DNA of 51,516 bases, from assembly GCA_964475745.1 (NCBI GenBank), contig CAYYXO010000001.1:1-51516 (forward strand). Reading direction: 5' to 3'. The notes below the pieces were generated by a model. The model did no database searches and was not told the DNA's origin. It saw nothing but the letters and a program-made list of their open reading frames with translations. Within the stretch, counting starts at the first letter, position 1; every line of letters starts with the position of its first letter. Below are positions 15,251-39,288 of the stretch, one piece after another. The position numbers and the translations under genes were made by a program. Source of the DNA: an uncultured Candidatus Saccharibacteria bacterium. GTDB lineage: Bacteria; Patescibacteriota; Minisyncoccia; UBA6257; JAKLIH01.

Positions 15251-17737
15251 CTAGCCCAAAGGCTCTTCGTCTGAGCCTTCTACTGGCTCTATATATCTAG
15301 TAACTTTAATTGATTTTTCTAAAATATTTAAACTCTCATCTTGCACTAAAACTCTTATTTCATTGCCTGAGACCAGGATATCTTTTTCAATTATAATAGT
15401 AAAAATGTCATCTCTTAGATGTTTTAGTTCGCCAATATAGTTATTGTTTATAAAAACTATTTTTTGATAAACATCAATTTCGCTTAAAACTTTTACTTGC
15501 ATTTCAAAATCATGATTTATTTCTTGTCCTGGTTGAATGTTTAAAAATTCTATGGTGATATTGCCTTCTTTTTCATCTTCACCTTTTGTGGTGGTGGTCG
15601 TGGTTTTGGTTTGATACTTTTCTTTATAAACATCCTCATTTAAAGGCTTGTTATAAAACTCATTAAAATTTTCTAGCCTAGAGCTTAACCAAGCCAAAAC
15701 CGGCTCTTGCCAATTCAAAAATTGGGAATCTTTTTCAGGATTTCTTGGTATTGGGCCTAGAGGATCTTTTTTATCAACAAAAAACAAAATCGTATTGGCT
15801 TGCAAAGTTCCTCCCAATTCATTTATATATTGACCATTTAGCATGGGTTTATCAATCGAAGTATAAGCTGGCTTTGAAAAATATTCTGTTGGTCTTTTTG
15901 ATAAAGCATATTTCATATATTCATTTCAAGCTGGCGCTGCCACCATGCCACCAGATGGACCCTCAAAAATTGGTTTATAATCATTGTTGCCAACTCAAAC
16001 GCCAGTAACAATATTAGGCGTATAACCAACAATTCAAGCATCACGAGAATCAGAACTTGTACCAGTTTTTGCTGCTACATCAATATTTTGACCAAAAAAC
16101 AAAGCGTTGTTTGCTGTACCAAAAAGTGGTGTTCTTGCCTGATTATCTGATAAAACATCGTTTACCATTCTAATATAATTTGGATTAAAAATTAATTTTG
16201 ATTTGTCTTGATATTCTTCGATTATTTTACCATCTTTGTCTGTTATTTTTAAAATAGTGCTTTGATTATGTCTTACTCCATCCTCACTTAAAACAGAGTA
16301 GGCCCCTACCATGTCATATAAAGTAACTGCTCCGCCTCCCAAAACTAAAGGTAGGCCATATTCTGCACTTCCTTTTGTAAAAGTTTTTATACCAAAGTTA
16401 AAAGCAAGCTCCAAAACATTGTCTATGCCTGCTAGATACAATGTTTTAACAGCTGGAATATTTAAAGACTGTGCTAACGAATTTCTTAAATTAACTGGCC
16501 CTCTAAAAATTCTATCGTAATTTTTAGGTATGTAAGGTCTATTTTCGTCAACAGAAAAATTTGTCTCGACATCAAAAACAATTGTATCTGGACTATATCC
16601 TTTTTCAAATAAAGCCAGGTAGGCAAAAGGTTTAAACAAAGACCCTGGTTGCCTTAAACCAAAAATTGCATTAAAATTGCCATCTATATCATAATTTCAA
16701 AAATCACGAGAACCAACCATGGCTAAAATTTGCCCTGTTTTTGGATCTTGAGTCAATAAGGTCATGTTATCAACACCAAATCTTTCTTCATTTTGCTGAC
16801 CATATCTTTTAACCACTTCTTCTGCCTTTTTTTGCAAATCATAATCGAGCGTGGTAATAATTTTTAAACCTCCTCTTTGCAACAAATCTTCTCCATATTT
16901 TGAAACCAGTTGTGATTGCACAAAAGCAACAAAATGAGGCGCTAAAATTGTTTGCTCCCTTGTTTTAAATTCTGTTTTTTCTTGTTTTATTTTTTCAACC
17001 TCTTCTGTTTCAGCCCAACCAAATTCAACCATTCTATCTAATACTCAGTTTTTTCTTATCTCCAGTCTTTCCCGGTTGTTTCCAAAAGGAGACAGAAATG
17101 TTGGTGCTTTTAACAGACTCGCTAGATAAGCAGCTTCTTTTAGATCTATGTCTTTGGCACTTTTGCTAAAATACAGCTGGCTAGCAGATTCAACCCCATA
17201 GGCGTTAAAACCATAGGGAACCTGGTTTAAATACATTTCAAAAATATCATCCTTAACATATTGACGCTCCAAATTAAAAGACAAAATCATCTCTCTTATT
17301 TTTCTCGCAGTTGATCTTTCTGTTGTTAAAAAAGCGTTTCTTGCTAGCTGCTGAGTGATGGTTGATCCTCCAGGTCCTTTACCCAAAGTAACAATATTTA
17401 AATAAGTTGCCCTTATTAAAGATTTTCATGACACCCCTTTATGGCTATAAAAAGCATCGTCTTCGGCAGCTAAAGTAGCTCATTTTATTACCTCTGGTAT
17501 CTCATTAAATTTTAAGTATTGCCTGTTTTCTAGTTGAGTTTGGTCATATAAAATAACCTCTCCCGTTCTATCATAAATAGAAAAATTTTCGTTAATAACT
17601 CTTTTTCCTAAGTTTTGTATGTCTGGCAAATCTTTAGAAAAATAAAACATTGTTGCTATAAAAACAACTCCTAACAAAACAAAAACTATAAAAATATTTC
17701 TAAAGTTTATTAGTTTTTTCAAAATTTTAATTATCAT
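15251..17737 (-). CDS. Bifunctional class A penicillin-binding protein (glycosyltransferase plus transpeptidase) with ~220-aa C-terminal extension
   Basis: Five track fragments (15251-15916, 16034-16639, 16697-17032, 17045-17386, 17480-17737) share one frame (2487 nt). N-terminal TM, AAEDDAFYSHKGV, GGSTITQQLARN, RQPGSLFKPF, KTGTS..RDA[W]IVGYTP, GV[W]VGNND, AAPA[W]NEYM. Confidence 0.93.
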
Positions 17738-18257
17738 GTTTAGATCTTACATTTATATTACCTACCTGGTTTATTTCTATAATTCTTTGGTAGTTGCCAG
17801 AAATAGCACCAATGGAAATCTTGCCATTCACAACCAAATTTTCACCTACATCATAAAGATATATCCTTGGCTCAGGCGGCAAATATATCAAAATTGAAAA
17901 GTTGACATTGTTTACAAAAGTATTTATCGGCAATCTTACTTCTTCTACCTTTTCTTCTTCTTGATATTTACTATCACCTTTTAAGTGCCTGTCACAAAAA
18001 TCAGAAAAAATAATGTAGCTATCTTTTTTATCTGGGTCAAAATAAATACCTCAACCACAAATTTTTTTGTCATCTATTTGCCTAGTTTGCATTGAAAGAT
18101 TTGCTACCCTTCTAATGTCAAAGGCCAACCTCTCTGAAGCTCTATTTATCTTATTTATATTTTCGCTTCTACGAGTATAGGAAATAGTAACTCCAAGCAT
18201 TATCATGATAATGGTTGAGGTAACTAATATTTCTATTAAGGTAAAGCTTTTTTTCAT
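17727..18257 (-). CDS. Minor type IV pseudopilin (GspH/FimT-like), 176 aa
   Basis: MKKSFTLIEILVTSTIIMIM class III signal/prepilin N-terminus. Fragments 18051-18257 and 17727-17933 are joined by one TGA. It overlaps the PBP1A start by 11 nt. Confidence 0.75.
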
Positions 18258-18266
18258 TTTTTTATT

Positions 18267-19181
18267 TTAAATAATATTTAAAAAATTAAAATAGAGCTGA
18301 AGTAATTTTTCTCCTCACATAAAAGTCATAAATCCTCCTAAAGCTAAATAAGGCCCAAAGGCAACATATTGTTTCATCTTCTTCTTTCCTGTTAAAATCA
18401 ACATTATACTGATTAATCCTCCGACAATAAAAGACAAGAATAAAAAGACAAATACAGCTGGAGCGCCTAAAATAAAGCCAACAAAACCAGCTATATAAGG
18501 ATCTCCATCACCCATCGCCTTCCCTTTAGTCGCTCATACAATTATTTGAATAGCCAAAAAACCAATAATCAACCCTAAAACATTGCTTCAAATGCCTAAA
18601 ACTCGCGGAAAGAAAAAACCAACGCTTCCAAGCCAATTGTTATAGAATTCGAAAAACATTATTGGCTGGAATTTGTTTACTAGCAACAAGGCTCCTTCGC
18701 CAATTAAGCCAACAAAAAAACCCGCGAACAAAAAACCATCTAAGACCACTAGGTTTCGTATATCAAAAATGGATATTAACACTAAAATAGAAACATAAAT
18801 TAGCCACAAGAACAGTGGGATAAAATTAACCACCATTGCCCAACCTTCCAAAATCAAAACTGAAGTATTATAAAAAGGTATTTGCAAAAAACGATAAAAA
18901 ACTAGGGCAAATAAAAGTCCCAACAAAACTTCTGTAAAAAGATTTAAAATTGATATTTTCTTTTTGCATTGACTACACTTTCCTCATAGAAAAATATAGC
19001 TTAAGATAGGAATATTTTCTCAAAACCTTAGCTTGTAGCCACAATGGTCACAATGCGACGGCTCTTTTATTATCTCTTTTTCTTTCTCTGATCTAAGAAT
19101 AATTACATTCAAAAAACTTCCCACCATAGATCCTAAAATAAACAACAAAATATATATAAAAGTTATTAAAAAACTTGACAT
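18267..19181 (-). CDS. pilD: Prepilin peptidase / N-methyltransferase (A24 family)
   Basis: Fragments 18315-18515, 18588-18926 and 19020-19241 are in one frame. CDHCGYKLRF[W]ENIPILSYIFL[W]GKCSQCKKKI zinc motif, multiple TM segments, GDGD active-site region. The start is chosen at the internal MSSFLITF (19181) because the upstream 20 codons look like promoter sequence. Ends at TAA 18267. Confidence 0.85.
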
Positions 19182-19243
19182 ATTGCTTCCATTTATTTTT
19201 GTTAATAAGTAAAATATAACAAATTTTTTATAAAATAACAAGA

Positions 19244-19277
19244 TAAAAAACCAGGCATTTTATACCTGGTTTTTTTT
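19244..19277 (-). terminator. Intrinsic terminator/attenuator after the major pilin gene
   Basis: Hairpin aaccagg-cattttata-cctggtt flanked by an A-run and a T-run. It sits between pilA and pilD, a classic position for differential pilin expression. Confidence 0.7.
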
Positions 19278-19285
19278 AAAATCTT

Positions 19286-19753
19286 CTACATAGTAATACA
19301 GTACATATTATCATTTAAACATTCTGACAGTCCAAATCTTGACTCTCTTAAGCTTTCTGTCAAGGCTGAATGTTTGGTTTCTAACTCTGCTCCCAAAACA
19401 TATGATTGACCGTTAGTGGCGTAAAAATATTTTTTACCTGAATTCACCAAAGGGTCATTTGGTAATTTATTTATGCTCAGGCCAACTTCTGTGCTGGTCA
19501 TATAGGTGTTTAGCTCATCTCAATCAATTTTATGCTCAGCGCCGGCTTGAGTTTGTGGATAAAAACCATATTTATTGTAATGCAACTCTAAAACTGTTTG
19601 GACATTTTTAAGATCAGTAATTCTTCTGGCATCCCTTGCGCTCGAACGACTTGCGCCCAAGCCAATGATAATCGAAGAAGCTAAAACACCGATAATAGCA
19701 ACCACAATTAACATTTCAATTAAAGTATATGCTTTTTTAAAATTTTTTATCAT
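19286..19753 (-). CDS. pilA: Type IV major pilin (155 aa)
   Basis: MIKNFKKAYTLIEMLIVVAIIGVLASS prepilin N-terminus with Glu+5. GspG/PilA-like ARDARRITDL.. region and C-terminal Cys pair (SECLNDNMYC). One in-frame TGA. TAG stop at 19286. Confidence 0.85.
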
Positions 19754-19774
19754 AGTTTACTTTTAATTTATTTT

Positions 19775-20980
19775 TTATATTGTTTGTGCTAATTGATAAA
19801 TTGGCAATAAAACACCCGCAATCAAAATTCCAACCAGCCCACCCAACACCACAATCAAAATTGGTTGTAACAATTCAAGCAAAACTGAAAAACCTCTTTC
19901 AACTTGATTAAAATAATAAACGGAAACTCTTTTCAATAACTCTGAAAGCCTTCCTGTATTTTCACCAATAGCTACCATCTGGGAAACCAATGGTGGAAAA
20001 TATTGTTCATATCTTAACATTAATTTATTTATTTGTTCACCGCTTCTCACGCCATCAGCTATTTCACTCGCAATATTTTTAAAAACAAAATTACCTGTTG
20101 CTCCTCCGGAAATCTCTAGAGCTTCAACAATTGGTATGCCGCCTACTAGCAAAGTGCTAAATGTTTCAGAAAATCGAGAAATATATATATTTTTATAAAT
20201 ATTGCCTAAAACTGGTATTTTCATTGATCAGTATGCTTTTAAATTTTGGCCCTCTCCACTATCAAGATAATTTTTAGCTGCCACAAACATGCCTAGCAAA
20301 ATCAACAAAACAACAAATCCTCAGTTAACTAAAAATCTACCTGCTGATATTAAAAGCTGCGTTAAAAATGGCGGGGTTCTTTCAAATTCTTGAAAAATAT
20401 CAACCATTTGTGGGGCAATAGACACAGTAATAACAGACCCCACTACTAAAAACACAATTAAAATAAAAATTGGATAAATAATAGCAGATTTTGCCTTTGA
20501 TTCTAATTCGCTTTCATTTTCTGCATAATCTGCCAAATAGCCAAATACTTGTTCTAGCCGACCAGAAACTTCTCCAGAACGAACCATTTCAATATAAAAG
20601 CGAGAAAAAATATTTGTACTTGCCATTGCTTGAGATAAAGTAAGTCCACCATCAATACTTGATATTAAACTAAACATCAAGTCTCTTGTTGCTGGAGTTC
20701 TTGATTGGTTTAAAATAGCTCTAAAAGATTCAAGTAAAGGAACTTTGGCTGATAACATAGTTGCCAATTGTCTTAATAAAACAGCGAGCTCTCTTCCCTT
20801 AATAGTATATTTTTTTTGAAAAATTTTATCCAAAAAACTAACTTCTTTTTTTCTTTTTATATCAAGTACTACCAAGCCATAGCTTTGCAATATTTGAAGG
20901 GCCAAATCTTCAGAACGAGCATTTATAACTCCCGACTTTGGCTCACCACTTTTTGTTTTTGCTTTATAAACAAATTCCAT
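19775..20980 (-). CDS. pilC: Type IV pilus platform protein (GspF/PilC family), 401 aa
   Basis: Fragments 19775-20224 and 20321-20980 are in frame through TGAs (..FLVN[W]GFVVLL..). Two GspF repeats with TM segments. Confidence 0.9.
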
Positions 20981-21002
20981 AAGTAAAATTTATTTTAATT
21001 GT

Positions 21003-22088
21003 TTAGCCCAATAAGTTCCTAAGCTCTGCTGGGTTAGAAGAATAAAACTCGGCTGTCTCCATTGAGATTTGTCTTTTTCTTACCAAATCAACTAAAGACC
21101 TGTTTAAGCTTACCATACCATCTTTCATCCCCGTTTCAATTACTAAATCTATTTGGTAAGTTTTATTTTCTCGGACCAAATTGCGAGCAGCTGTATTCAT
21201 AAGTAAAATTTCACAAACAGGAATTCTGCCTCCATCAATCTTTGGCACTAATCTTTGAGAAACAATACCAATTAAAGTTGCTGACAATTGTGATCGAATC
21301 TGCTGTTGTTGTGCAGAATCAAAGCTATCAATAATACGGTCAATCGTTTGGGCAGCTGAATTAGTGTGTAAAGTTGAAAAAACCAAATGGCCTGTTTCTG
21401 CTGCTGTTAAGGCAATTGCAATTGATTCAGCATCTCTCATCTCTCCAATCATAATTACATCAGGATCTTGCCTTAAAGAAGATCTTAGAGCATTATTAAA
21501 GTTTAGCGTATCTTCGCCAACTTCCCTTTGACTAACTAAGGCTCTATCTGGCGTATAAACATACTCTATCGGATCTTCAATAGTAATAATATGTTCCATT
21601 CTTTTGTGATTGATTTCATCAACAATTGAAGCCAAGGTGGTCGTTTTCCCTTGTCCAGCAGGACCAACTACCAAAAACAAACCCTGACTATAAGTTGCCA
21701 TATTATGTAGTACTGGAGGCAAGCCAAGCTCTTCTATTGTTTTAATAGCTATTGGAATCAATCTTAAAGCAATGGCCAAATATCCTTTTTGAAAAAAAAT
21801 ATTTACTCTAAAACGTATTTTGTCTTCCAAAGAAAAAGCAAAATCTATTTCTTTGTCTGACATTAAAAACTGCTGTTGTTGTTCGTTTAAAAGCATATTA
21901 GTAAATCCTATCATGGCATCAGGAGTAACAATCTCCTCTTTACTAATGGATATTAGTTTGCCATCTAGTCTGATGATAGGCCTCTTTCCTACACCCAAAT
22001 GCAAATCAGAAGCTCCTTGTTGAGAAGCCATCACCATCAACTCTATTAACTTTCTAGCAAAACGATCTTGATTTAACTCTGGATTCAT
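21003..22088 (-). CDS. pilT: Type IV pilus retraction ATPase, PilT family
   Basis: 361 aa. ASDLHL..G..P..R..G, Walker A GPAGQGKTT, Asp box ITIEDPIEY, Walker B DPDVIMIGEMRD, His box GHLVFSTLHTN. Confidence 0.9.
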   Translation of the reverse strand: MNPELNQDRFARKLIELMVMASQQGASDLHLGVGKRPIIRLDGKLISISKEEIVTPDAMIGFTNMLLNEQQQQFLMSDKEIDFAFSLEDKIRFRVNIFFQKGYLAIALRLIPIAIKTIEELGLPPVLHNMATYSQGLFLVVGPAGQGKTTTLASIVDEINHKRMEHIITIEDPIEYVYTPDRALVSQREVGEDTLNFNNALRSSLRQDPDVIMIGEMRDAESIAIALTAAETGHLVFSTLHTNSAAQTIDRIIDSFDSAQQQQIRSQLSATLIGIVSQRLVPKIDGGRIPVCEILLMNTAARNLVRENKTYQIDLVIETGMKDGMVSLNRSLVDLVRKRQISMETAEFYSSNPAELRNLLG

Positions 22089-22153
22089 AATATATTAATT
22101 TATTTATCTGTATATATTTTAGCAAGTATTTAAATTATTCGCAACTTTAAAAA

Positions 22154-23914
22154 CTATCTTTCTGTTTCTTCTATTACTTCTTCTAAAGTAGTTATCCCTA
22201 GCAAAGCTTTTACTACACCATCTTGGCTTAAAGTTAGTAACCCTTGATTTCTCATCGCTTCTCAAAGCTTGCTTTCAGAAAAATTATTATAAACAATATC
22301 TTCTACCTCCTTATTCATTAAAAGCATTTCATAAATACCAACTCTTCCTTTAAAACCTCTTTTATTACATTCGTCGCAACCAACACTCTCGTAAAGCTTG
22401 TATGGTTTTTTAATATTATACTTGGCAAGCTCTTCTGTTTTAATATTTTTTAATAACTCTTCTATTTTTTGAATGTCTTGTGGGGTTAAAGCTTTTTCTT
22501 TTTTACAATGAGGACAAAGTCTTCTTACCAACCTCTGCGCAATCATAATATTCAAGCTAGGTGGCAATAAAAATCTTTGCACTTTTAAATCCATCAATCT
22601 TGGAATAACGCCAATGGCATTATTAGTATGTAAAGTAGATAATACCAAATGCCCTGTCAGCGCAGCATGAACTGCTAATTCTGCTGTTTCTGTGTCACGA
22701 ATTTCTCCTACCATAATAATGTCTGGGTCTTGCCTGACAATGTGCCTTAAGCCTTTGGCAAAAGTATAACCAATTTCTGGCAAAACTTGCGACTGATTTA
22801 TTCCTTCTAAAGTATATTCAACCGGATCTTCTAGGGTAACTAAATTAACATCATCTTTGTTTAATAATTGTAACATGGCATAAAGTGTTGTTGATTTTCC
22901 TGATCCTGTTGGTCCAGTAATCAAGATCATTCCATACGGTTTTTTTATTGCTTCTTTAATAGTACTTGTTGCCACATCGCTCATGCCTAATTGCTGGACA
23001 CTCAAAAGCCCAGTAGCCGAATCTAAAACTCTAATAGCCACCTTTTCTCCATGACTGGTTGGAAAAGTTGAAACACGAAAATCAACTACTCTTTCGTCAA
23101 TAATAGATCTAAACCGACCATCCTGAGGAATTCTCAATTCATCAATTTTTAAATTAGACATAATTTTTATACGAGAAACTATTGGCAAATGAACTTCTAA
23201 AGGAAGCAGTACTGTAGTATAAAGATTGCCATCATTTCTAAATCTCACTCTCAAAACTTTTCTTGCTGGCTCAAAATGTAAATCAGACGCGCCAATTCTA
23301 ACCGCCTCTGTCACAATAATACTTAGTAATTTAATAATTGGCGCTTCTTCAGCAAAATTTTTTTCAATGGTTTTTAAATCCAGCGCTTGCTCTTTACTTC
23401 TTTGTGTTTCTAAAACTTTTTTTAATTGTGGGGCCAACTTTTGTGTTAATTCTTGCAATACGCTTGTTAAATTATCAGCAAAATTATTATAAAATCTTCA
23501 GGCTCTCTGCAAACTCTCGCTTGTCGTCACAAAAACCTTTAATTGCAACTGCCTTTGTTTTGCTATAAAGCTTATGGCTTCAAAAGCTTTTTCATTGTCA
23601 GGGTTAAGCATCATCACAAAGAGCTCTTTTTCATTTTTGTCAAAAACAGCCAGCTTATAATTTCTGGCGGAACTTTCTTCAACAATGTCTAAAACTTCTT
23701 TTTCTATGGTTTCGTTTTTTTCAAAATTTTTAACTGGCAAATTAAGAATCTCTCCTTTTATTTTTGCCAATTCATCATCTTTAACAATATTGTCCTCCAG
23801 AAGAATCTCTTCTACACTCTTACGAAACATTTTAGAATCGTTAACAATTGATTTTTCGTCAAATTTATAACCTTTTTCTTTAAGATTATTAAATAAAATG
23901 CTGTGTTGTATCAT
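22154..23914 (-). CDS. pilB: Type IV pilus assembly ATPase PilB (GspE family), 586 aa
   Basis: T2SSE_N-like N-domain (23498-23914) joins the ATPase core (22262-23458) and a C-terminal 35 aa through two TGAs. GPTGSGKSTT, LEDPVEY, DPDIIMVGEIRD, GHLVLSTLHTN, CPHC..CDEC zinc site. TAG at 22154. Confidence 0.92.
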
Positions 23915-23924
23915 AATTTTTTAT

Positions 23925-24233
23925 TTAAAAAGATTGGAAAGGATTTTCTCTTCCTACTTCAAATTCCAAAGAAATATCATTATGTGGAGTTAATTGGTAA
24001 AATTTTGGATTATTTACAATTAAGTCAATGTCTCTGTCTAAATTTTGACCAATCCTGTCAAGCTCTTTTGTATCTTTATTAATAACCTTACCAATATCGA
24101 TCTTCGCTACTTCTAAAACATTGCTTTTTCTGAAACTAAAAAAAACTATTGCAATTACTATTACAAAAATTATTATAAAAACAAACATAAAATTATTTGT
24201 TGAGTTTTTTGTTTTTTCTACTTGCATGTCCAT
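23925..24233 (-). CDS. Small single-pass membrane protein in the pilus operon (PilP-position, unassigned)
   Basis: 102-aa ORF with one TM helix (FMFVFIIIFVIVIAIVFFSF). It sits between pilO and pilB. No family recognised. Confidence 0.55.
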   Translation of the reverse strand: MDMQVEKTKNSTNNFMFVFIIIFVIVIAIVFFSFRKSNVLEVAKIDIGKVINKDTKELDRIGQNLDRDIDLIVNNPKFYQLTPHNDISLEFEVGRENPFQSF

Positions 24234-24249
24234 AAATATTTTTTATTGT

Positions 24250-24825
24250 TTATTTTGTTTTTTGAAAATAGGCGTTTATTATTACATTTGCTTCAATAAT
24301 GCCAGATTGAACTCCTCTTGCTTGTGGAGCTTGCTTTATGTTTACGCTAGCTACGTCCATCAATCTTAGCTCTAATTCTATTTTTTCAAAAAAATCAACT
24401 ATTGCTTCATATTGCCCTGCCGTTACCAAGTTAATTTCCACCATACTATAATCCAAAACACCTTCTCTTGGGCTAGTGGCTGTTTCTATCTCTCTAAAAG
24501 TCATGCTAGAAACACTAACATTGGCAAGCCTGGCAATGGCATCAATAGTCCCAACTAAATTGCCAAACTGAGGTTCTGAAGGCAAAGCCATTCTTATTTT
24601 AGCAAAATCTCCTCCTATTGCTTGATATTTGGCAGTTAGTTCATTTGCCAACTTCTTGTAGTTTTCTATTTCTGACAAAACTTCAATGTTTTCTTGCGTT
24701 TTAATTCTTGCTTTTTGGTAGTTGTGATATGCTTTCAAGGTAAAACTATTTACCACAAAAATAGTTGCTGCTAACAACAAAGTGATAACAAAAATTGCAA
24801 TTGATTGTTTTGTTGTCTCTTTCAT
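24250..24825 (-). CDS. pilO: PilO-like pilus alignment protein
   Basis: 191 aa. N-terminal TM, coiled-coil, then alpha/beta domain, in the position after the pilN-like gene. Confidence 0.6.
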   Translation of the reverse strand: MKETTKQSIAIFVITLLLAATIFVVNSFTLKAYHNYQKARIKTQENIEVLSEIENYKKLANELTAKYQAIGGDFAKIRMALPSEPQFGNLVGTIDAIARLANVSVSSMTFREIETATSPREGVLDYSMVEINLVTAGQYEAIVDFFEKIELELRLMDVASVNIKQAPQARGVQSGIIEANVIINAYFQKTK

Positions 24826-24840
24826 AAAATTAATTTAAAA

Positions 24841-25383
24841 TTATCTATAAAATAAATCGCTAACCACTAAAGATAAAATAAAGCTAACTCCTGATCCGAT
24901 GTTCCTAGTATTTCTTATTACTACAGATTCAACTCCTTCAATATTTTCAAGAGCCAAAACAGCTTGTACAATAACTTCATTGCTTCTAGCAAAACCGCCA
25001 ATTTCAACATTTCTTTCTCTTATGTTAGAATTGAGATAATTAAAATAAATATCTTTGTGAGTGTTGTTAGCAATATCCATTAGAAAAGCAGACGCACTAA
25101 CTTTATTAGCCAAGATATGTTTTACATTTTGTATTCCCCTTTGAAAATCAATAATAATATTTTGGTTTTCGATTGGAAAAGTATTTTTAGCTTGAGCTAC
25201 TTGCCTTTCTAAATCATTAATTACCACCTGTTGTCTTGAAGTCAAAAAGTCAAAACCAAACTTAAGGGCGATTGACAATCCAAATAAAACCAGCACAAAA
25301 ACTAAAAGACTCTTCGGTCATGTTGGACCATAATCAATTTGTTGATTTCAATCAGCATTGTCTTTTTCAAAATCAAAAGCCAT
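24841..25383 (-). CDS. pilN: PilN-like pilus alignment protein
   Basis: ORF 24841-25296 extends through two TGAs to ATG 25381-25383 (MAFDFEKDNAD[W]NQQIDYGPT[W]PKSLLVF..). Single TM plus coiled-coil. It follows pilM. Confidence 0.6.
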
Positions 25384-25409
25384 ACAAAAATATTTTATTT
25401 ATTAATTAT

Positions 25410-25438
25410 ATTGTAAACAATTTTTCCATAAAAATCAA
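25410..25438 (-). promoter_or_regulatory. Internal sigma70-type promoter upstream of pilN
   Basis: Minus strand: TTGATT (25433-25438), 17-nt spacer, TACAAT (25410-25415). Confidence 0.45.
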
Positions 25439-25532
25439 GTACTCTTATGATAGTCTGCGGACAATCATTTTCGTTCGTAGATTATCATCTAATAGTAGGA
25501 GTGCAGAATTCTATCAGTAAGAATATGATAGC

Positions 25533-26579
25533 TTATTTTATATTTTTCATCAACAATCCACATGCCACACTTAAACTTGCTCCAATTTCCTTTAAAACTG
25601 GATCTAGTTTTTTGTCATATTTAACCGCTCCCAGCTCAAATGGATTACCCTCAAAAACTGGGACTTTAAAATCATTAGAAAAAATATTTGTAATACCAGG
25701 CAAATTAGCCACACCTCCAGTTAAATATATTTTTTCTATATTTTTATTAGTTCTTTTATAATAATAATTAAATTCTCTTTGCGCCTCTTGTTCAATTGCA
25801 CCCAGCAAAGGCATCATCAATTTAGCAACTTCTTCTTGTCCAGTAGGAGGTTTAAATCCGTACAGACGTTTTATTTCCTCAGCTCTACTAGGCATAATGT
25901 TTAATCCCGTGGATATAACTTGTGTTAAATCTCCTCCGGCTATGTCAATAGATCTAATTGACTGCAGAACTTTATTCTCAAAAACAGCTATCGTTGTTGC
26001 TCTTCCTCCTATATCAATCACTCCAACAGATCCTTTTTCATTACTAACCAAAGCCCTTGCACTTGCCAAAGTTTCTAACTCCATTTTATTAATTTTTATG
26101 TTCGCCATTTTAGCAATAGTCATATATCTATTAATAAAATCTTTTGGAATAGCCACCAATAGCACCTTTATTCTTTGACTATCTTTGTAAACTATTTGTC
26201 AATCAATCGAAACTTCTGATAATGCCAACGGCACATACTGTCTTGCCTGATAATAAACCGCTCTTTTTAAATCTTTGTCATTAAGCAAGGGCATTTCTAA
26301 TATGCTAGTGTAAGCATTAAAACAAGGTATAGCAAAAATAGCATCTTTTATTCTTATATTGCTTTTCTTTAACAAGTCTTTTAAATACATTGCTGCTGTT
26401 TTTTCAACCACCTTAAAACTACTTGTTTGAATAGCTTCATTAATTCTTTCTAGATGAGCATAGTTTTCTAAGATACCATAAGTTTCTAGCTTTGGTTGAT
26501 TGCCAGAAAAAGATAGTACTACTGCTTTTATGGTTGTGGTGCCAATATCTATGCCTAGATATTTTTTCTTAAAAAACAT
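25533..26579 (-). CDS. pilM: PilM, actin-like ATPase of the type IV pilus
   Basis: Fragments 25533-26165 and 26199-26579 are joined by one TGA (..SEVSID[W]QIVYK..). MFFKKKYLGIDIGTTTIKAVVL phosphate-1 motif and IDIGGRATT phosphate-2 motif. Confidence 0.88.
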
Positions 26580-26664: not shown

Positions 26665-27375
26665 ATGAAAAAGTTTTTTAATTTTATCTTAGAGATTATT
26701 TTTCCAGCCAAATGTTTTGGTTGTTTTTCCTACACTTCCAAAAAATATTTCTTATGCGACCAATGCCTAGAAAAAGTCTTTTTTAGCAATTTCTTTATTT
26801 GCCCCATTTGTCATAAAAAAGTTGATCTCTTAAAAAACACCTCTTGTTTTCACAAAGACCTTTATTTTAAAAAAATATTATGCCCTCTTGACTACAAAGA
26901 CGAAACAATAAAAAATTTAATTTTAAAGTTTAAATATCAAAAATTTTTAAACACTTCTGTTTTTTTTGAACAAATTCTTTATAAGGCACTGCTTCCTTAC
27001 AATCATCTTTTAAATAATTCTGATTATTTAATTGTGCCCGTTCCTTTATATTTTCTAAAAGAAAGGCAACGGGGCTTTAATCAGTCAGTAATTCTTGCAG
27101 AGATTGTTAGTCGCATTTTAAACATCTCTATTTGTCATGCTTTAATTAGATGTAAAAACAATCCTCCTCAAGCTCAAATTTCTAACCAGGAAAAAAGGTT
27201 AGCCAACGCCAAAGATATTTTTCAAATAAACACTTTAAAAAAAAGTTTTGTCAAAAATAAAAACATCATTTTAATTGATGATGTTTTTACCACTGGAGCG
27301 ACCTTAAATGAATGCGCTAAAATTTTAAAAGAAAATCATACTAAAAGTATTGTCGCTGTCTGTCTAGCAAAATAA
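26665..27375 (+). CDS. comF: ComF-family competence protein (phosphoribosyltransferase fold with N-terminal Cys motifs)
   Basis: 236 aa. CFGC..CDQC..CPIC Cys pairs and C-terminal PRTase motif IILIDDVFTTGATL. Divergent from pilM. Confidence 0.85.
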   Translation: MKKFFNFILEIIFPAKCFGCFSYTSKKYFLCDQCLEKVFFSNFFICPICHKKVDLLKNTSCFHKDLYFKKILCPLDYKDETIKNLILKFKYQKFLNTSVFFEQILYKALLPYNHLLNNSDYLIVPVPLYFLKERQRGFNQSVILAEIVSRILNISICHALIRCKNNPPQAQISNQEKRLANAKDIFQINTLKKSFVKNKNIILIDDVFTTGATLNECAKILKENHTKSIVAVCLAK

Positions 27376-34857: not shown

Positions 34858-35622
34858 TTAGTTTTGTTTCATTTCATTTACTTTTTCAACGAAAGTATTA
34901 AAATCAATGGCACCAACCATTTGATCCTTTCCTTCTATAAATAAAGTAACTGGATAGCCATTTATAAAAGTAGCTGGCACCCCTAATCTATCAAAAGAAT
35001 CTAAATAATAATTAGCTCTCATTATAATTAACTCTCTATATTTTTGACTTTCTAAACATTCTGAAAAATGCTTTTGAGAAAGACCTATTTTTTCTGCTAC
35101 TTTATTAATGTTTTCTTTTGAAAAAGCTTGCTCCAATGGCATGTCTAGTTCTGCCAAATTAAACATTTTTTCATGCATTTGCCAAAACATGTTTTGTTCA
35201 TTAGCACAATATGATGCTTCTGCTGCAATTAAAGTTGGCGAATTAGATCCTAAAGCCAAAAAATCATATTGTAACCATACATCGCTTAGATTGGCTTGCT
35301 GTAAAAAAGGACTAATGGTTTCTCTGTAAAATTTATTTGATCAAGGACAAGCATAGTCAGACAAAACTGTAATGTAATTGCCTGAAGCTTTATTACCTTT
35401 TCCCTGCAATTGAATGTGTGTAAAAAAATTATCATCTAAAAAGTTTTGCTTTAAAGACTTTTCTTCTATCTTGTCCGCCCTCCCTTTTTCTTGACTTTTG
35501 TTAAATACAAACCTTTCTCCTTCTGGCAATAAACTGTTGTAAGCCGCAAAGAAAATAATCAATATCAAGGCCAAAACAACTACGACCAAAGACATAAGAT
35601 TTTTATACATTTTGTCAAACAT
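34858..35622 (-). CDS. Membrane-anchored DsbA-family thioredoxin-fold protein with a CP[W]S active-site motif (254 aa)
   Basis: Fragments 34858-35259 and 35341-35622 are joined through TGAs. N-terminal TM, ..LSDYACP[W]SNKFY.., AAEASYCANEQNMFWQMHEKMF typical of the Thioredoxin_4/DsbA family. Confidence 0.8.
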
Positions 35623-35751: not shown

Positions 35752-35780
35752 TTGACAAATCATATCTAGTATGATATAAT
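35752..35780 (+). promoter_or_regulatory. Perfect consensus sigma70 promoter driving the candidate ncRNA
   Basis: TTGACA (35752-35757), 17-nt spacer, TATAAT (35775-35780). No protein-coding ORF lies downstream on this strand. Confidence 0.65.
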
Positions 35781-35786
35781 AAATAA

Positions 35787-35980
35787 TCGTAATGAGTTAA
35801 TAGCTCATTTTTTGATTAAAGCTTATTGATCTGTAGATGCAAGGGCGATTTATTGCTTTTGGCCCTCAGAACTTTAATCAGATGGGTAATTTGGTTCCGA
35901 CTGGATTATACCTCTATGAAGTTCTTAATCTCTGCTACTTGCAGAGGATGATGTCTACAGATTAATGGGCTTTATTTTTT
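35787..35980 (+). ncRNA. Candidate structured small RNA (~190 nt), class unknown; rod-like fold with central bubble resembles 6S RNA
   Basis: 21-bp closing helix 35818-35838 / 35953-35973 with four G-U pairs, so it is valid only as plus-strand RNA. Inner helices: 35868-35876/35917-35925 (9 bp), 35842-35846/35862-35866, and hairpin 35930-35946. Ends in a U-run 35974-35980, followed by a second terminator. Confidence 0.6.
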
Positions 35981-35992
35981 TGCTTACTATAC

Positions 35993-36027
35993 CCCCGTCT
36001 ATGCTAACAATAGACGGGGTGTTTTTT
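35993..36027 (+). terminator. Intrinsic terminator (plus-strand orientation) downstream of the candidate ncRNA
   Basis: Stem ccccgtcta / tagacgggg with loop tgctaacaa, then tgtttttt. The minus-strand version lacks a U-tail. Confidence 0.75.
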
Positions 36028-39010
36028 ATATTACTCTTTTTATTTCTTCTATCGTGGTAACACCTTCTATCACTTTTAGAACACCATCTTGTGTCAAGCT
36101 TAAGCTTCTTTCTAATAGCTCTTTCTTAAAAACATTAGCATCTGCTTGAGAAGCAATTAACTCTTCTATTTCTGTATCGCTATATAAAATTTCGAACAAA
36201 CCAACTTGCCCTTCAAAACCAGTGAACTTACATTTATCGCAGCCTTTTTTATCATACATTTTTCATTCTTTGCTCAACCTAAATTCATATAATTTATTCA
36301 TTTCTTTAGAAATGCCCTTGATAGTTTCTTTTATAAAAGACTCTTCTTCTGGTTTTAACTCTTTTTTCTCTTTGCAATAAGGGCACAACTTTCTTACTAG
36401 TCTTTGAGCTACTGCCCCACTAAAACTTGCTGATAAATCTTGACCTGCTATATTAAAGTTTTTTAGCCTAGAGATAACTGTTGATGTATCAATGGTATGA
36501 ATTGTAGACAAAATTAGATGCCCTGTTAAAGAAGCTTGGACTGCTGTTTTAGCTGTTTCTTCGTCTCTAATCTCTCCAACTAAAATAATGTTTGGATTTT
36601 GTCTTAAAAAACTTTTGAGTGCTGCTGAAAAAGTATAGCCTTTTGATTCATTCACTTGAGTTTGCGTTATACCTTTAATTTGATATTCAATGGGATCTTC
36701 GACTGTCATAATTTTTACATTTGGATTGTTCAATGTTGTAAGCATTGCATACATTGTTGTTGTTTTTCCAGAGCTAGTAGGTCCACAGGCTAGTATAATA
36801 CCATTTGGCTTTCTCATCATCTTTTTAACACTTGGCATCATTTCCGGATAAATACCCAGGTCTGTTAATTCTAATTGCGTAATATTGGCGCTCAAAAATC
36901 TCATAACTAAAGATTCTCCAAAACCACTTGGTATAATAGAAACTCTAATGTCCTGATCTTGCTCTGGCCTTTCAATCTTAAACCTTCCTTCATTTACAAC
37001 TCCTTTTTCTTTATAGTCAACCCCTATGAGTTGTTTAGTATATTGAATTATGCCCATATAACTAGCCATATCAAGTTGAATTTTTTCTTGCAAAACACCG
37101 TCAATCCTATAGCGAACTTTAGCTATATTTTCTTCTGGCTCAACATGTATGTCAGATGCTTTATAAATTAATCCTAAAATACATAACATTTCAAAAGCAT
37201 CTTCTGCTTTGTGTTCATTAATAATTTTTTCTATTTTTTTCAAATTATTAATTGATCCAAAAACATTGTCATATTCATCTTTAGTCACTTTAATGCCTCT
37301 TAATAAAGACTGGCTTAATAGTTTATCAAACATTAAGTTTATATAGTCAATGTCTCCCGAAACTCTAACTAGCTCTTCCATTGAAGTTTCGCCTTTTATT
37401 ACTTTGCTTAGGCCATCGTGGAACAACGGCGTCATGCCCATTTGAATAGCCCTCTCTCTTATCTCAGAAATACTTGCCCTTGCTTTGATCATTTCATTAA
37501 TATCATCATTAACAAACAACAATTCAAAAATACCTACTTGGCCTTTATAGCCAAGGTTATTACATTTGGCGCACCCTTTTGGTCTATATAATTTTTTTAT
37601 TTCTCTTGGTGCTACAATATTACTTTTAGGAGATAAAACTGACAAAGCGTTTTTTATTTCCTTTTCTGTTTCTTCTGGAACGCTATACTCTTCTTTGCAA
37701 TAAGGGCACAACTTTCTTACTAGTCTTTGGGCAATGATAATTTTTAAACTCGAAGCCATTATATCATTTTCAATATCAAATTCCATCAATCTAGCTATTG
37801 CTCCAGCTGCTTCATTTGTATGTAGAGTTGAAAAAACTAAATGCCCTGTTAAAGAAGCCTGTATGGCTATATTGGCTGTTTCTTTATCTCTTATTTCCCC
37901 AACCATAATTACATCAGGGTCTTGTCTTAAAATAGATTTTAAACCACTTGAAAAACCATATCCTTGCTTGTCATTAACTTGAGTTTGATTTACTCCTTTT
38001 AGCTGATATTCGATCGGATCTTCAATGGTAATGGCATTTACTCCTGGCTTAGCTTTTTCTTTTAATAAAGAATATAGCGTAGTAGTTTTTCCGGATCCAG
38101 TAGGTCCTGTCACCAAAACCATACCATTTGGGCTAGTTATTAAACCTTTAACCAGCTTAACTTCATCTTCGTCAAACCCCAGATCTTCTAAAGACAGCGT
38201 CATAGCTGACTGACTTAAAATTCTCATCACCAATATTTCTCCGTGCTGACTTGGAATGGCAGAGGTTCTTGCTTGGTACTCTTCGCCTTGATCAATTATT
38301 TTAAAACGACCATCTTGGGGAGAATTTTGTATATTTAGTTTTAACCTTGCCAACAATTTTATTCTATCACGCAATTGAAAATACATTTTTTTAGGAATGC
38401 TCGTTATTTCATCCAAAACTCCATCTATTCTAAATTTAATAGCCGCATCTTCATCTCTTGGGCTTATATGAATATCTGATGCTCCAGACAAAACAGCTGC
38501 TTTAAAAATTAAACCATTATACAGAGATACATTATTTTGATCAATAGGCACCAGAGTTTCTTTTAAATCTCTAAAATCAACTTTAGGAGTATTAGATAAT
38601 ATCAAAGTGTCTGTTATTATTTCCCTTGGTTTTGACACCAAGCTATATCTTTGAAAAGCATACTCTAAGCTTACTTTTGAACATAAGAACAATTTTATAA
38701 TATATCCTTTTTCTTTTAGCTCTTGTATTACTTTTTTTGCTCCTTCATTTTCATCATCAACCAAAGCAACTGCCACCTCCTTGGCTTTCATTTGGAAAGC
38801 AATTATATTGTTTTCTTTTGCTATTTTTTCTTCAATCAAAGCTATGGCAAAAACTTCAATATTTACCTTTCTTAAGTCAATGTAAAACATTCCTTTTTTA
38901 TAGGCTAGATTTTCAACACTTCTTTCTCTTCCATCATCGTATATTTGACCTAACTGACCATCAAGCTGCTCTTTTCTTTGTTGATTTTTTAAAATATCAT
39001 CTATATCCAT
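36026..39010 (-). CDS. Tandem double PilB/GspE-family secretion ATPase (994 aa): T2SSE_N domain plus two complete ATPase modules
   Basis: The 915-aa ORF 36263-39010 already spans both modules without any stop. It joins 36026-36259 through one TGA. Module 1: GPTGSGKTT, ITIEDPIEY, DPDVIMVGEIRD, GHLVFSTLHTN, CPYC..CAKC. Module 2: GPTSSGKTT, MTVEDPIEY, NPNIILVGEIRD, GHLILSTIHT, CPYC..CDKC. Confidence 0.9.
36369..36406. repeat. 38-nt segment identical to 37692-37729 (encodes QRLVRKLCPYCKE of ATPase module 2)
   Basis: Direct comparison: tctttgcaataagggcacaactttcttactagtctttg occurs in both modules. Confidence 0.9.
37692..37729. repeat. 38-nt segment identical to 36369-36406 (encodes QRLVRKLCPYCKE of ATPase module 1)
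   Basis: Same 38-mer as at 36369-36406. A further shared stretch, atgccctgttaaagaagc, occurs near 36521 and 37840. Confidence 0.9.
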
Positions 39011-39053: not shown

Positions 39054-39093
39054 AAAAAACAAGCTCCAATTATATAATTGGAGCTTGTTTTTA
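39054..39093 (-). terminator. Intrinsic terminator after rpmB
   Basis: Long palindromic hairpin acaagctccaatta-ta-taattggagcttgt flanked by an A-run and a T-run. Confidence 0.75.
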
Positions 39094-39288
39094 TTTTAGT
39101 TTGTTTTCTTTTGTCATTTTTCTTTGACATGAAGTACACACTCTTGCTTTATGGCCGGTTTTTAGCTTAACATCATGTAAATTTGGTTTTTGAAAATATT
39201 TTTTAGTTGGGTCTAATTTTGACATAATTTTCTTTCAAGATGTTGCCTTATTTCGGCCTTTTCCACAATTATCACAAATCTTAGCCAT
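39091..39288 (-). CDS. rpmB: 50S ribosomal protein L28 (65 aa); absent from the ORF track
   Basis: Hand translation: MAKICDNCGKGRNKATS[W]KKIMSKLDPTKKYFQKPNLHDVKLKTGHKARVCTSCQRKM.. L28 pattern with CxxC..CxxC zinc-ribbon form. TAA at 39091. Confidence 0.8.

Follow-up and report, generated by a model that had tools for sequence, protein, structure and literature searches.

Two apparently competent PilB/GspE-type motor modules in one chain: an old and seemingly undescribed tandem ATPase family of Patescibacteria

What is to be made of a reading frame in which two complete secretion ATPase motors follow one another: is it one gene, how old is the fusion, and what could such a chain assemble into? 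The question is raised by a gene in a 51,516-nucleotide stretch of DNA, here called the window, from an uncultured Candidatus Saccharibacteria bacterium (GTDB lineage Bacteria; Patescibacteriota; Minisyncoccia; UBA6257; JAKLIH01; assembly GCA_964475745.1, contig CAYYXO010000001.1, positions 1 to 51,516). An earlier note on this DNA, made from its letters, had described a 994-aa protein with two PilB/GspE modules in tandem. The reading favoured here, which is judged probable, is that of a single-chain 'double PilB' that arose by one ancient duplication, would form an alternating ring of three chains on a PilC-type platform, and carries a 38-nt patch of gene conversion. The gene and its main parts are as follows.

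36026..39010, minus strand: tandem PilB/GspE-type ATPase, complete coding sequence, 994 aa, with a TAA stop at 36026-36028
38636..38893, minus strand: N1 domain, GSPII/MshEN-like, residues ~40-125, in single copy (PF05157 sub-threshold; AlphaFold predicted local distance difference test, pLDDT, of ~90 and an alpha/beta fold)
37364..38509, minus strand: ATPase module 1, N2D+CTD, residues 168-549 (Pfam, motifs, Foldseek TM-score of 0.93 to PilF/PilB), with Walker A at 302-310 (K308), Asp box at 327-335, Walker B at 364-375 (E372), His box at 389-399 and Cys435/438/480/483
37178..37357, minus strand: inter-module connector, residues 552-611 (conserved length; modelled helices)
36035..37165, minus strand: ATPase module 2, N2D+CTD, residues 616-992 (Pfam, motif conservation), with Walker A at 743-751 (K749), Asp box at 768-776, Walker B at 805-816 (E813), His box at 830-839 and Cys876/879/924/927

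Pfam T2SSE matches the protein twice (751 bits in total), and when the halves are scanned alone each gives a full-length match, 407 bits for residues 1-552 (profile positions 15-370 of 370) and 349 bits for residues 553-994 (positions 22-370 of 370), which bears out the two full PilB/GspE modules in one chain that had been claimed. The Walker A, Asp box, Walker B, His box and tetracysteine site listed for both halves in the earlier note are all present, and across 112 full-length homologues every catalytic motif and the four cysteines of either module are ~93-100% conserved. K308/K749, E372/E813 and H397/H838 are kept in all 112 and so is H390, with H831 kept in 111; the zinc-site cysteines C435, C438, C480 and C483 are found in 112/112, and C876, C879, C924 and C927 in 110/112. 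Seventy alignment columns are at least 90% conserved with the same residue in both modules, and only two are conserved yet module-specific, D364 vs N805 and G356 vs A797; module 2 has the signature RQNPN where module 1 has RQDPD. Both modules apparently are catalytically competent, with purifying selection acting on ATP binding, hydrolysis and zinc binding. The T2SSE_N-type N-terminal domain of the earlier note stands with a qualification: PF05157 matches residues 40-122 here only weakly (19.4 bits against a cut-off of 23.1), though homologues do match it and residues 40-125 are modelled with confidence.

AlphaFold2, applied to the whole chain with a 69-sequence alignment, gave a mean pLDDT of 87.6 and the same order of strands and helices in both modules. 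Foldseek places the model on PilF (5OIU; TM-score 0.93, root-mean-square deviation 2.0 A over ~390 residues), on PilB (5TSG/5TSH; 0.91-0.93) and also on GspE. The connector between the modules is 53-65 aa long (median 61) in the 112 homologues, which conserve G552, Y556, Y/F561, S566, Q567, L569, R571 and G572 within it, and it is modelled as helices at 554-568, 577-585 and 590-599 with a dip in pLDDT at 560-570.

Against the NCBIfam models modules 1 and 2 score 477 and 396 bits for GspE (TIGR02533, cut-off 630) and 458 and 368 bits for PilB (TIGR02538, cut-off 676). For both modules the GspE score is slightly above that for PilB, the opposite way round to the canonical PilB encoded elsewhere in the window, which, at 550 bits, likewise misses the TIGR02538 cut-off. 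The features that mark PilB/GspE membership are present (full T2SSE match, four ATPase motifs, tetracysteine zinc site and N2D+CTD fold), as are those that mark the tandem family (a probable N1, module 1, a connector of 53-65 aa, and a module 2 with RQNPN and A797). By their NCBIfam scores both modules are of PilB/GspE type, not PilT type. A PilT-type retraction ATPase was considered and rejected on its low TIGR01420 scores (173 and 159 bits with a cut-off of 319, far below those for PilB/GspE) and on the presence of the tetracysteine site.

Whether this is one gene depends in part on how the source organism reads UGA, as there is such a codon within the frame.

36263..36265, minus strand: in-frame UGA, codon 916, read as Trp (W916); the closest relative locus, L001, also has TGA at codon 916

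Under translation table 11 the gene appears as a 915-aa open reading frame (ORF; 36263-39010, minus strand) followed by the in-frame TGA, one codon, and a 77-aa ORF (36026-36259). The single frame of the earlier note, open for 915 aa in the standard code across the module junction, agrees with these ORF calls, and readthrough of the TGA gives the 994 aa; the junction itself is 360 codons upstream of the TGA and open under any code. When just TAA and TAG are taken as stops the window becomes a tightly packed series of long genes, almost all with in-frame TGA. In 40 window genes TGA occurs in frame 81 times and TGG 24 times, and the genes end in TAA (36) or TAG (4), never in TGA. Four of the seven UGA sites of a class-A penicillin-binding protein (PBP; 15251-17737), at 231, 568, 581 and 604, correspond to Trp in solved PBP1a structures. 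Codon usage and alignment thus indicate that in the source genome of the window UGA is a sense codon and specifies Trp (code 4), and with UGA as a sense codon the tandem ATPase ORF is continuous. The alternative code implicit in the earlier note was right in having UGA as sense, though both the PBP alignment and the codon counts give its meaning as Trp, not Gly. Code 25 (UGA as Gly) was rejected on the alignment of UGA with Trp in PBPs, and it is further disfavoured as TGG as sole Trp codon would leave 0.17% Trp. Residue 916 was set aside as a test of the code since the position is variable among homologues and hence uninformative, and TGA counts in loosely defined frames of related loci were dropped as confounded. 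A 2026 preprint (10.64898/2026.05.24.727570) reports UGA reassigned to Trp for the first time in Patescibacteriota, among lineages of the class Minisyncoccia, and the window fits that account.

A public metagenome-assembled genome of the same lineage, labelled Candidatus Paceibacterota (L008; GCA_041651815.1, JBAZIM010000010.1), carries a code-11 annotation that breaks up its genes: the tandem ATPase appears as one piece of 105 aa and another of 879 aa, and AspRS and MnmA are likewise fragmented. Public code-11 annotation of this UGA=Trp lineage splits or truncates the tandem ATPase gene.

How widespread and how old the fusion is can be judged from a homologue search over 5.8 billion proteins; a scan of GTDB genomes for relatives gave one locus, and the distribution given here comes from the protein search. 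The identical 994-aa protein is present in the collection searched (P0001), along with more than 110 homologue clusters of ~960-1015 aa with 96-100% query coverage and 38-80% identity. The architecture on which the earlier note had remarked is thus shared by related genomes, in more than 100 independent assemblies from NCBI, JGI, ENA and Logan. Named homologues go under 'GspE/PulE family protein' or 'PilB' and come from Paceibacterota, Moranbacteria, Parcubacteria, Minisyncoccia and the 'Patescibacteria group'. A query confined to the junction (residues 520-650), run against 1.84 billion representatives, recovered, at E of 1e-10 or less, 17 clusters (50% identity level), most of them 980-1018 aa long and matched at ~510-670, and a few shorter ones that are probably partial. 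Intact tandem ORFs are found in standard-code genomes on contigs as long as 831 kb, 248 kb and 185 kb, which excludes an assembly artefact.

Between proteins, mean identity is 55% for first modules with first, 51% for second with second, and 45% for first with second, and the two modules of the window protein are themselves ~43% identical. A neighbour-joining tree of 224 modules, with the PilB of the window as root, puts the 112 first modules in one clade and the 112 second modules in another, and the nearest neighbour of every module is one of its own kind. Two such clean clades imply a duplication older than the diversification of the family, and the fusion, as far as the tree can tell, goes back to one ancient duplication and has since been inherited vertically. 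The recent internal duplication entertained in the earlier note does not survive the divergence of the halves and their separate clades. The family is old and widespread in Patescibacteria (the candidate phyla radiation, CPR), and seemingly undescribed.

One relative, P0016 (L006 8001-12383, 1460 aa), has N1 followed by three ATPase modules. Its middle module is chimeric, with an N2D 66% identical to that of module 3 and a CTD 63% identical to that of module 1. Unequal crossover between modules long ago would be expected to leave such a pattern, and long exact repeats are absent.

The two halves in the window nonetheless share a stretch of identical DNA, which the earlier note had reported.

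37692..37729, no strand assigned: 38-nt stretch in module 1, codons QRLVRKLCPYCK, identical to 36369-36406 (sequence comparison)
36369..36406, no strand assigned: 38-nt stretch in module 2, identical to 37692-37729, a probable short gene-conversion tract (sequence comparison)

The run was found just as described, and the identity extends to 40/41 nt, at an offset of 1323 nt that is exactly one module. An ungapped block of 296 codons between the halves has 45% protein and 56% DNA identity, with the same codon used at only 59% of identical residues. With the amino acids in common and the gene's codon usage taken into account, 14 identical codons across the shared AQRLVRKLCPYCKE peptide would have P ~8e-5, keeping in mind that the actual run is 12 complete codons plus 2 nt and that the first and last AQRLVRKLCPYCKE codons differ between the copies. 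In L001 (80% protein and 76% DNA identity to the window gene) the same two segments match at 30/38 positions, vs 38/38 in the window, which points to homogenisation in the lineage of the window; against its L001 orthologue either window copy has 7-8 differences. The sole other in-register exact match of at least 15 nt between the window halves is a run of 18 nt, and in other relatives in-register exact matches either are absent or fall at different motifs, with lengths of 17-29 nt. The identity is best explained as a short, lineage-specific patch of intragenic gene conversion, so that the gene conversion proposed earlier holds for these 38 nt and not for anything beyond them.

What might such a chain build? 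Hexamers of the PilT/VirB11 family are constructed from rigid packing units, each an N2D(n) with the CTD(n+1) (PMC6858323), and units of this kind, together with a connector of fixed length, mean that two modules of one chain can supply neighbouring ring positions. On the favoured account an ancestral extension ATPase of PilB/GspE type would have been internally duplicated once, leaving a single N1 ahead of two complete N2D+CTD motors with a structured, fixed-length connector between them, and the product would have been kept beside a canonical single-module PilB. Three chains would close into a ring of six modules, first and second by turns, with no more than three N1 domains; the symmetry of this pseudo-hexamer would be truly three-fold. 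That chains have two modules or, as in P0016, three is a hint of such a ring, since six is divisible by either number, and further hints, it may be argued, are the constrained length of the connector and the module-specific invariant residues. The ring would dock on a PilC-type platform and drive pilin polymerisation as PilB does. In the trimeric PulF platform, as modelled and cross-linked, an internal duplication gives alternating Cyto1 and Cyto2 domains, each of which binds one N2D of the hexamer (PMC10790770), and the alternating N2D1 and N2D2 could pair one-to-one with the alternating Cyto1 and Cyto2 of such a trimer. Had each N2D specialised on its own Cyto domain, the N2D would be expected to diverge more between modules than the CTD core, and it has done so (38% against 59% identity).

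A bolder form of the proposal is offered tentatively and is on the doubtful side of possible: that this is a natural single-chain dimer forming a C3 trimer, its modules permanently non-equivalent and each matched to one cytoplasmic domain of PilC, with the three-module relative forming a dimer of trimers. The earlier note had suggested that a covalent dimer would form a trimer of dimers and fix pairs of non-equivalent subunits, though in an A-B-A-B-A-B ring opposite positions are A and B, and a C2 rotary cycle would not fix such pairs. Several observations weigh against the favoured account. All known PilB structures are C2-symmetric, not C3 (PMC6858323). The AlphaFold models have a predicted TM-score (pTM) of 0.50 for the whole chain and 0.63 for a CTD1-connector-N2D2 fragment, with module orientation undefined and connector pLDDT low. 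Neither module meets the NCBIfam equivalog cut-off for PilB or GspE, and no platform or pilin gene adjoins the tandem gene in any of nine contexts, those of the window and eight related loci.

The window does contain a canonical pilus locus, and its features, with those that flank the tandem gene, are listed here.

17727..26579, minus strand: canonical type IV pilus locus, presumed partner machinery (gene annotation, Pfam)
25533-26579, minus strand: pilM
24841-25383, minus strand: pilN
24250-24825, minus strand: pilO
22154-23914, minus strand: pilB
21003-22088, minus strand: pilT
19775-20980, minus strand: pilC
19286-19753, minus strand: pilin
18267-19241, minus strand: prepilin peptidase
17727-18257, minus strand: pilin-like ORF, no Pfam match
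39091-39288, minus strand: probable rpmB (L28), an unlisted 65-aa ORF with an in-frame UGA (PF00830 at 18.8 bits, below cut-off, full profile covered)
39055..39092, no strand assigned: 17-bp hairpin between probable rpmB and the tandem gene, terminator-like on both strands
35993..36019, no strand assigned: GC-rich hairpin directly 3' of the tandem stop, with a T-run on the plus strand, so that it would terminate a convergent small RNA too

The tandem gene is 12.1 kb from pilB (13 kb in the earlier note), with no adjoining pilus genes and with housekeeping neighbours, in keeping with the claim that it is unlinked to pilB-pilT-pilC. Further upstream, at higher coordinates, are genes for a class-IV aminotransferase, an RsmI-like methylase, MnmA, NDK and AspRS; downstream are a small-RNA candidate and genes for a membrane-anchored DsbA-like protein, a Pif1-type helicase, a PolB-like exonuclease and a PD-(D/E)XK nuclease. 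Synteny is kept in the close relatives L001, L002 and L008. The neighbours in distant members are DHH and RuvB, or TsaE, PolA and RecG, with no pilus genes. From the flanking hairpins the tandem gene looks monocistronic.

The small-RNA candidate (35752-36025, plus strand, ~240 nt) and the ATPase gene converge. Its promoter (35752-35780) is a perfect TTGACA-17-TATAAT with extended TG, an intrinsic terminator lies at 35993-36019, and its minimum free energy is -90.7 kcal/mol, with a z-score of -8.9. It is nearly identical in L001, though the ATPase genes of the two are only 76% DNA-identical, and has changes that preserve pairing; an Rfam scan of the candidate gave no family match. The DsbA/thioredoxin-like membrane-anchored gene (34858-35622, minus strand; L001 13373-14119) is a conserved downstream neighbour in the window lineage, and pilin folding is the role proposed for an oxidoreductase family enriched in the CPR (PMC6744442). 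Divergent from pilM is a ComF-like gene (26665-27375, plus strand) for a double zinc ribbon and a phosphoribosyltransferase domain, which links the canonical pilus locus to DNA uptake.

With this setting in mind, the same architecture might serve a machine other than this type IV pilus, for instance a competence (Com-like) pseudopilus or a secretion pseudopilus whose platform and pilins are encoded elsewhere. Such a role is compatible with the ring model and not exclusive of it, and is considered unlikely though well short of negligible. The tandem gene has been kept together with canonical PilB and PilT, it lies outside pilus operons in all 9 contexts, and the slight preference of its modules for the GspE model is the reverse of that of canonical PilB. 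DNA-metabolism genes are frequent around it, a weak pointer in this direction, with Pif1 helicase, exonuclease and PD-(D/E)XK nuclease in the window and L001, DHH and RuvB in L005/L006, and PolA and RecG in L004/L009, yet such genes are commonplace housekeeping functions in very small genomes, and which of them adjoin it varies with the lineage. Acinetobacter baylyi reportedly uses two extension motors (PMC8213720). In L005 a lone T2SSF gene lies 5.5 kb from the tandem gene, but a second platform or pilin gene is absent from the 51-kb window.

A different geometry, a stacked double ring in which six chains would form coaxial module-1 and module-2 hexamers, one engaging the platform and the other regulatory or a booster, seems improbable. 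Stacked rings are usual for tandem P-loop ATPases such as KaiC, p97/Cdc48 and ClpB; complete active sites in both modules are what many double-ring enzymes have, a side-by-side arrangement of the modules is not defined by AlphaFold, and the three-module relative could merely add a third tier. However, no PilT/VirB11-family member is known to stack, and only the N2D face meets the platform in published models (PMC10790770), which would leave a second N2D ring partnerless; the observed module numbers, both dividing 6, and the single N1 domain per chain also speak for one ring. Scarcely credible is an artefact, whether merged adjacent pilB genes, a collapsed repeat, readthrough of a true stop or a very recent, decaying duplication. 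The in-frame TGA, the exact 38-nt repeat and the split gene in the NCBI code-11 annotation of a relative might suggest one, but UGA is Trp genome-wide, the junction, so far upstream of the TGA, is open in every code, the architecture is intact in standard-code genomes, and the halves are of separate ancient clades. Recent duplication and assembly collapse were rejected on module divergence, the two-clade tree and the scarcity of exact repeats, the 18-nt run being the one in-register match of at least 15 nt beyond the 38-nt patch.

The single-chain double PilB can be set beside known systems. PilB of Geobacter metallireducens (PDB 5TSG/5TSH/6OLJ) shares the N2D+CTD fold, the ATPase motifs, the tetracysteine site and probably an N-terminal N1, and PDB PilB chains match the tandem protein with sequence E-values of ~1e-96. 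Unlike PilB, the tandem protein has two motor modules per chain with one N1 and a 53-65-aa connector, and is not encoded with pilT/pilC/pilMNO. GspE/EpsE (PDB 4PHT, 4KSR/4KSS, 1P9R) has the same fold and motifs and is the best NCBIfam match of both modules, from which the tandem architecture and scores below the equivalog cut-off of 630 set the new protein apart. Patescibacteria are without an outer membrane or secretin (PMC6744442), which makes a classical type II secretion system unlikely. Thermus thermophilus PilF (PDB 6F8L, 5OIU, 5IT5), a close structural match, is likewise a long PilB-type chain (913 residues) with repeated domains, but what it repeats is the N-terminal GSPII domain ahead of one ATPase, whereas the tandem protein duplicates the ATPase motor. 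In A. baylyi TfpB is reportedly a second PilB-type extension ATPase beside canonical PilB (PMC8213720), as the tandem protein would be; the A. baylyi paralogues are separate and single-module, and the tandem protein reaches 425 bits on the NCBIfam TfpB model, whose cut-off is 850.

Duplicated ATPase modules in one chain are also found in KaiC and p97/Cdc48, and in F1 alpha3beta3 two diverged paralogous modules alternate in a six-membered ring that resembles the one proposed here, all of these being unrelated or distant ATPase classes. A tandem T2SSE protein also occurs outside the CPR, P0152 (L010 8001-11144, GCA_964384625.1, 1047 aa, 62% GC). It too has two T2SSE modules per chain, but in it N1 gives way to soluble T2SSF (platform-like) domains, Pro and Glu abound in the linker, and in module 1 another residue takes the place of the Walker A lysine (GPTGSGTTT). 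Its neighbours, among them a sulfatase, an ECF sigma/anti-sigma pair, a MoxR-type ATPase (PF20030/AAA_3) and BatA, are unlike the CPR contexts, and it is probably a separate fusion event.

The earlier note knew of no characterised tandem GspE, and a sequence search of the PDB found no chain with two motor modules, nor was a description of tandem, fused or duplicated PilB/GspE in CPR found within the literature library searched. The sequences are already in databases under generic names, while the conserved, catalytically intact tandem architecture appears to be uncharacterised.

How PilB and GspE couple hydrolysis to rotation or lifting of the platform is debated, as are C2 versus C3 or C6 symmetry and 6:2 versus 6:3 stoichiometry. 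A linked and diverged pair of motors, both intact, constrains the ring arrangements that are possible, and the tandem protein permits asymmetric mutagenesis without engineered concatemers. If the modules do prove to be permanently non-equivalent in a C3 trimer, the PilT/VirB11 motor family would gain a quaternary arrangement new to it, and the protein would be a natural system in which C2 and C3 firing orders could be distinguished by mutation of a single module. Patescibacteria need type IV pili to attach to their hosts and probably to take up DNA, and the tandem family is a widespread, unannotated feature of these organisms.

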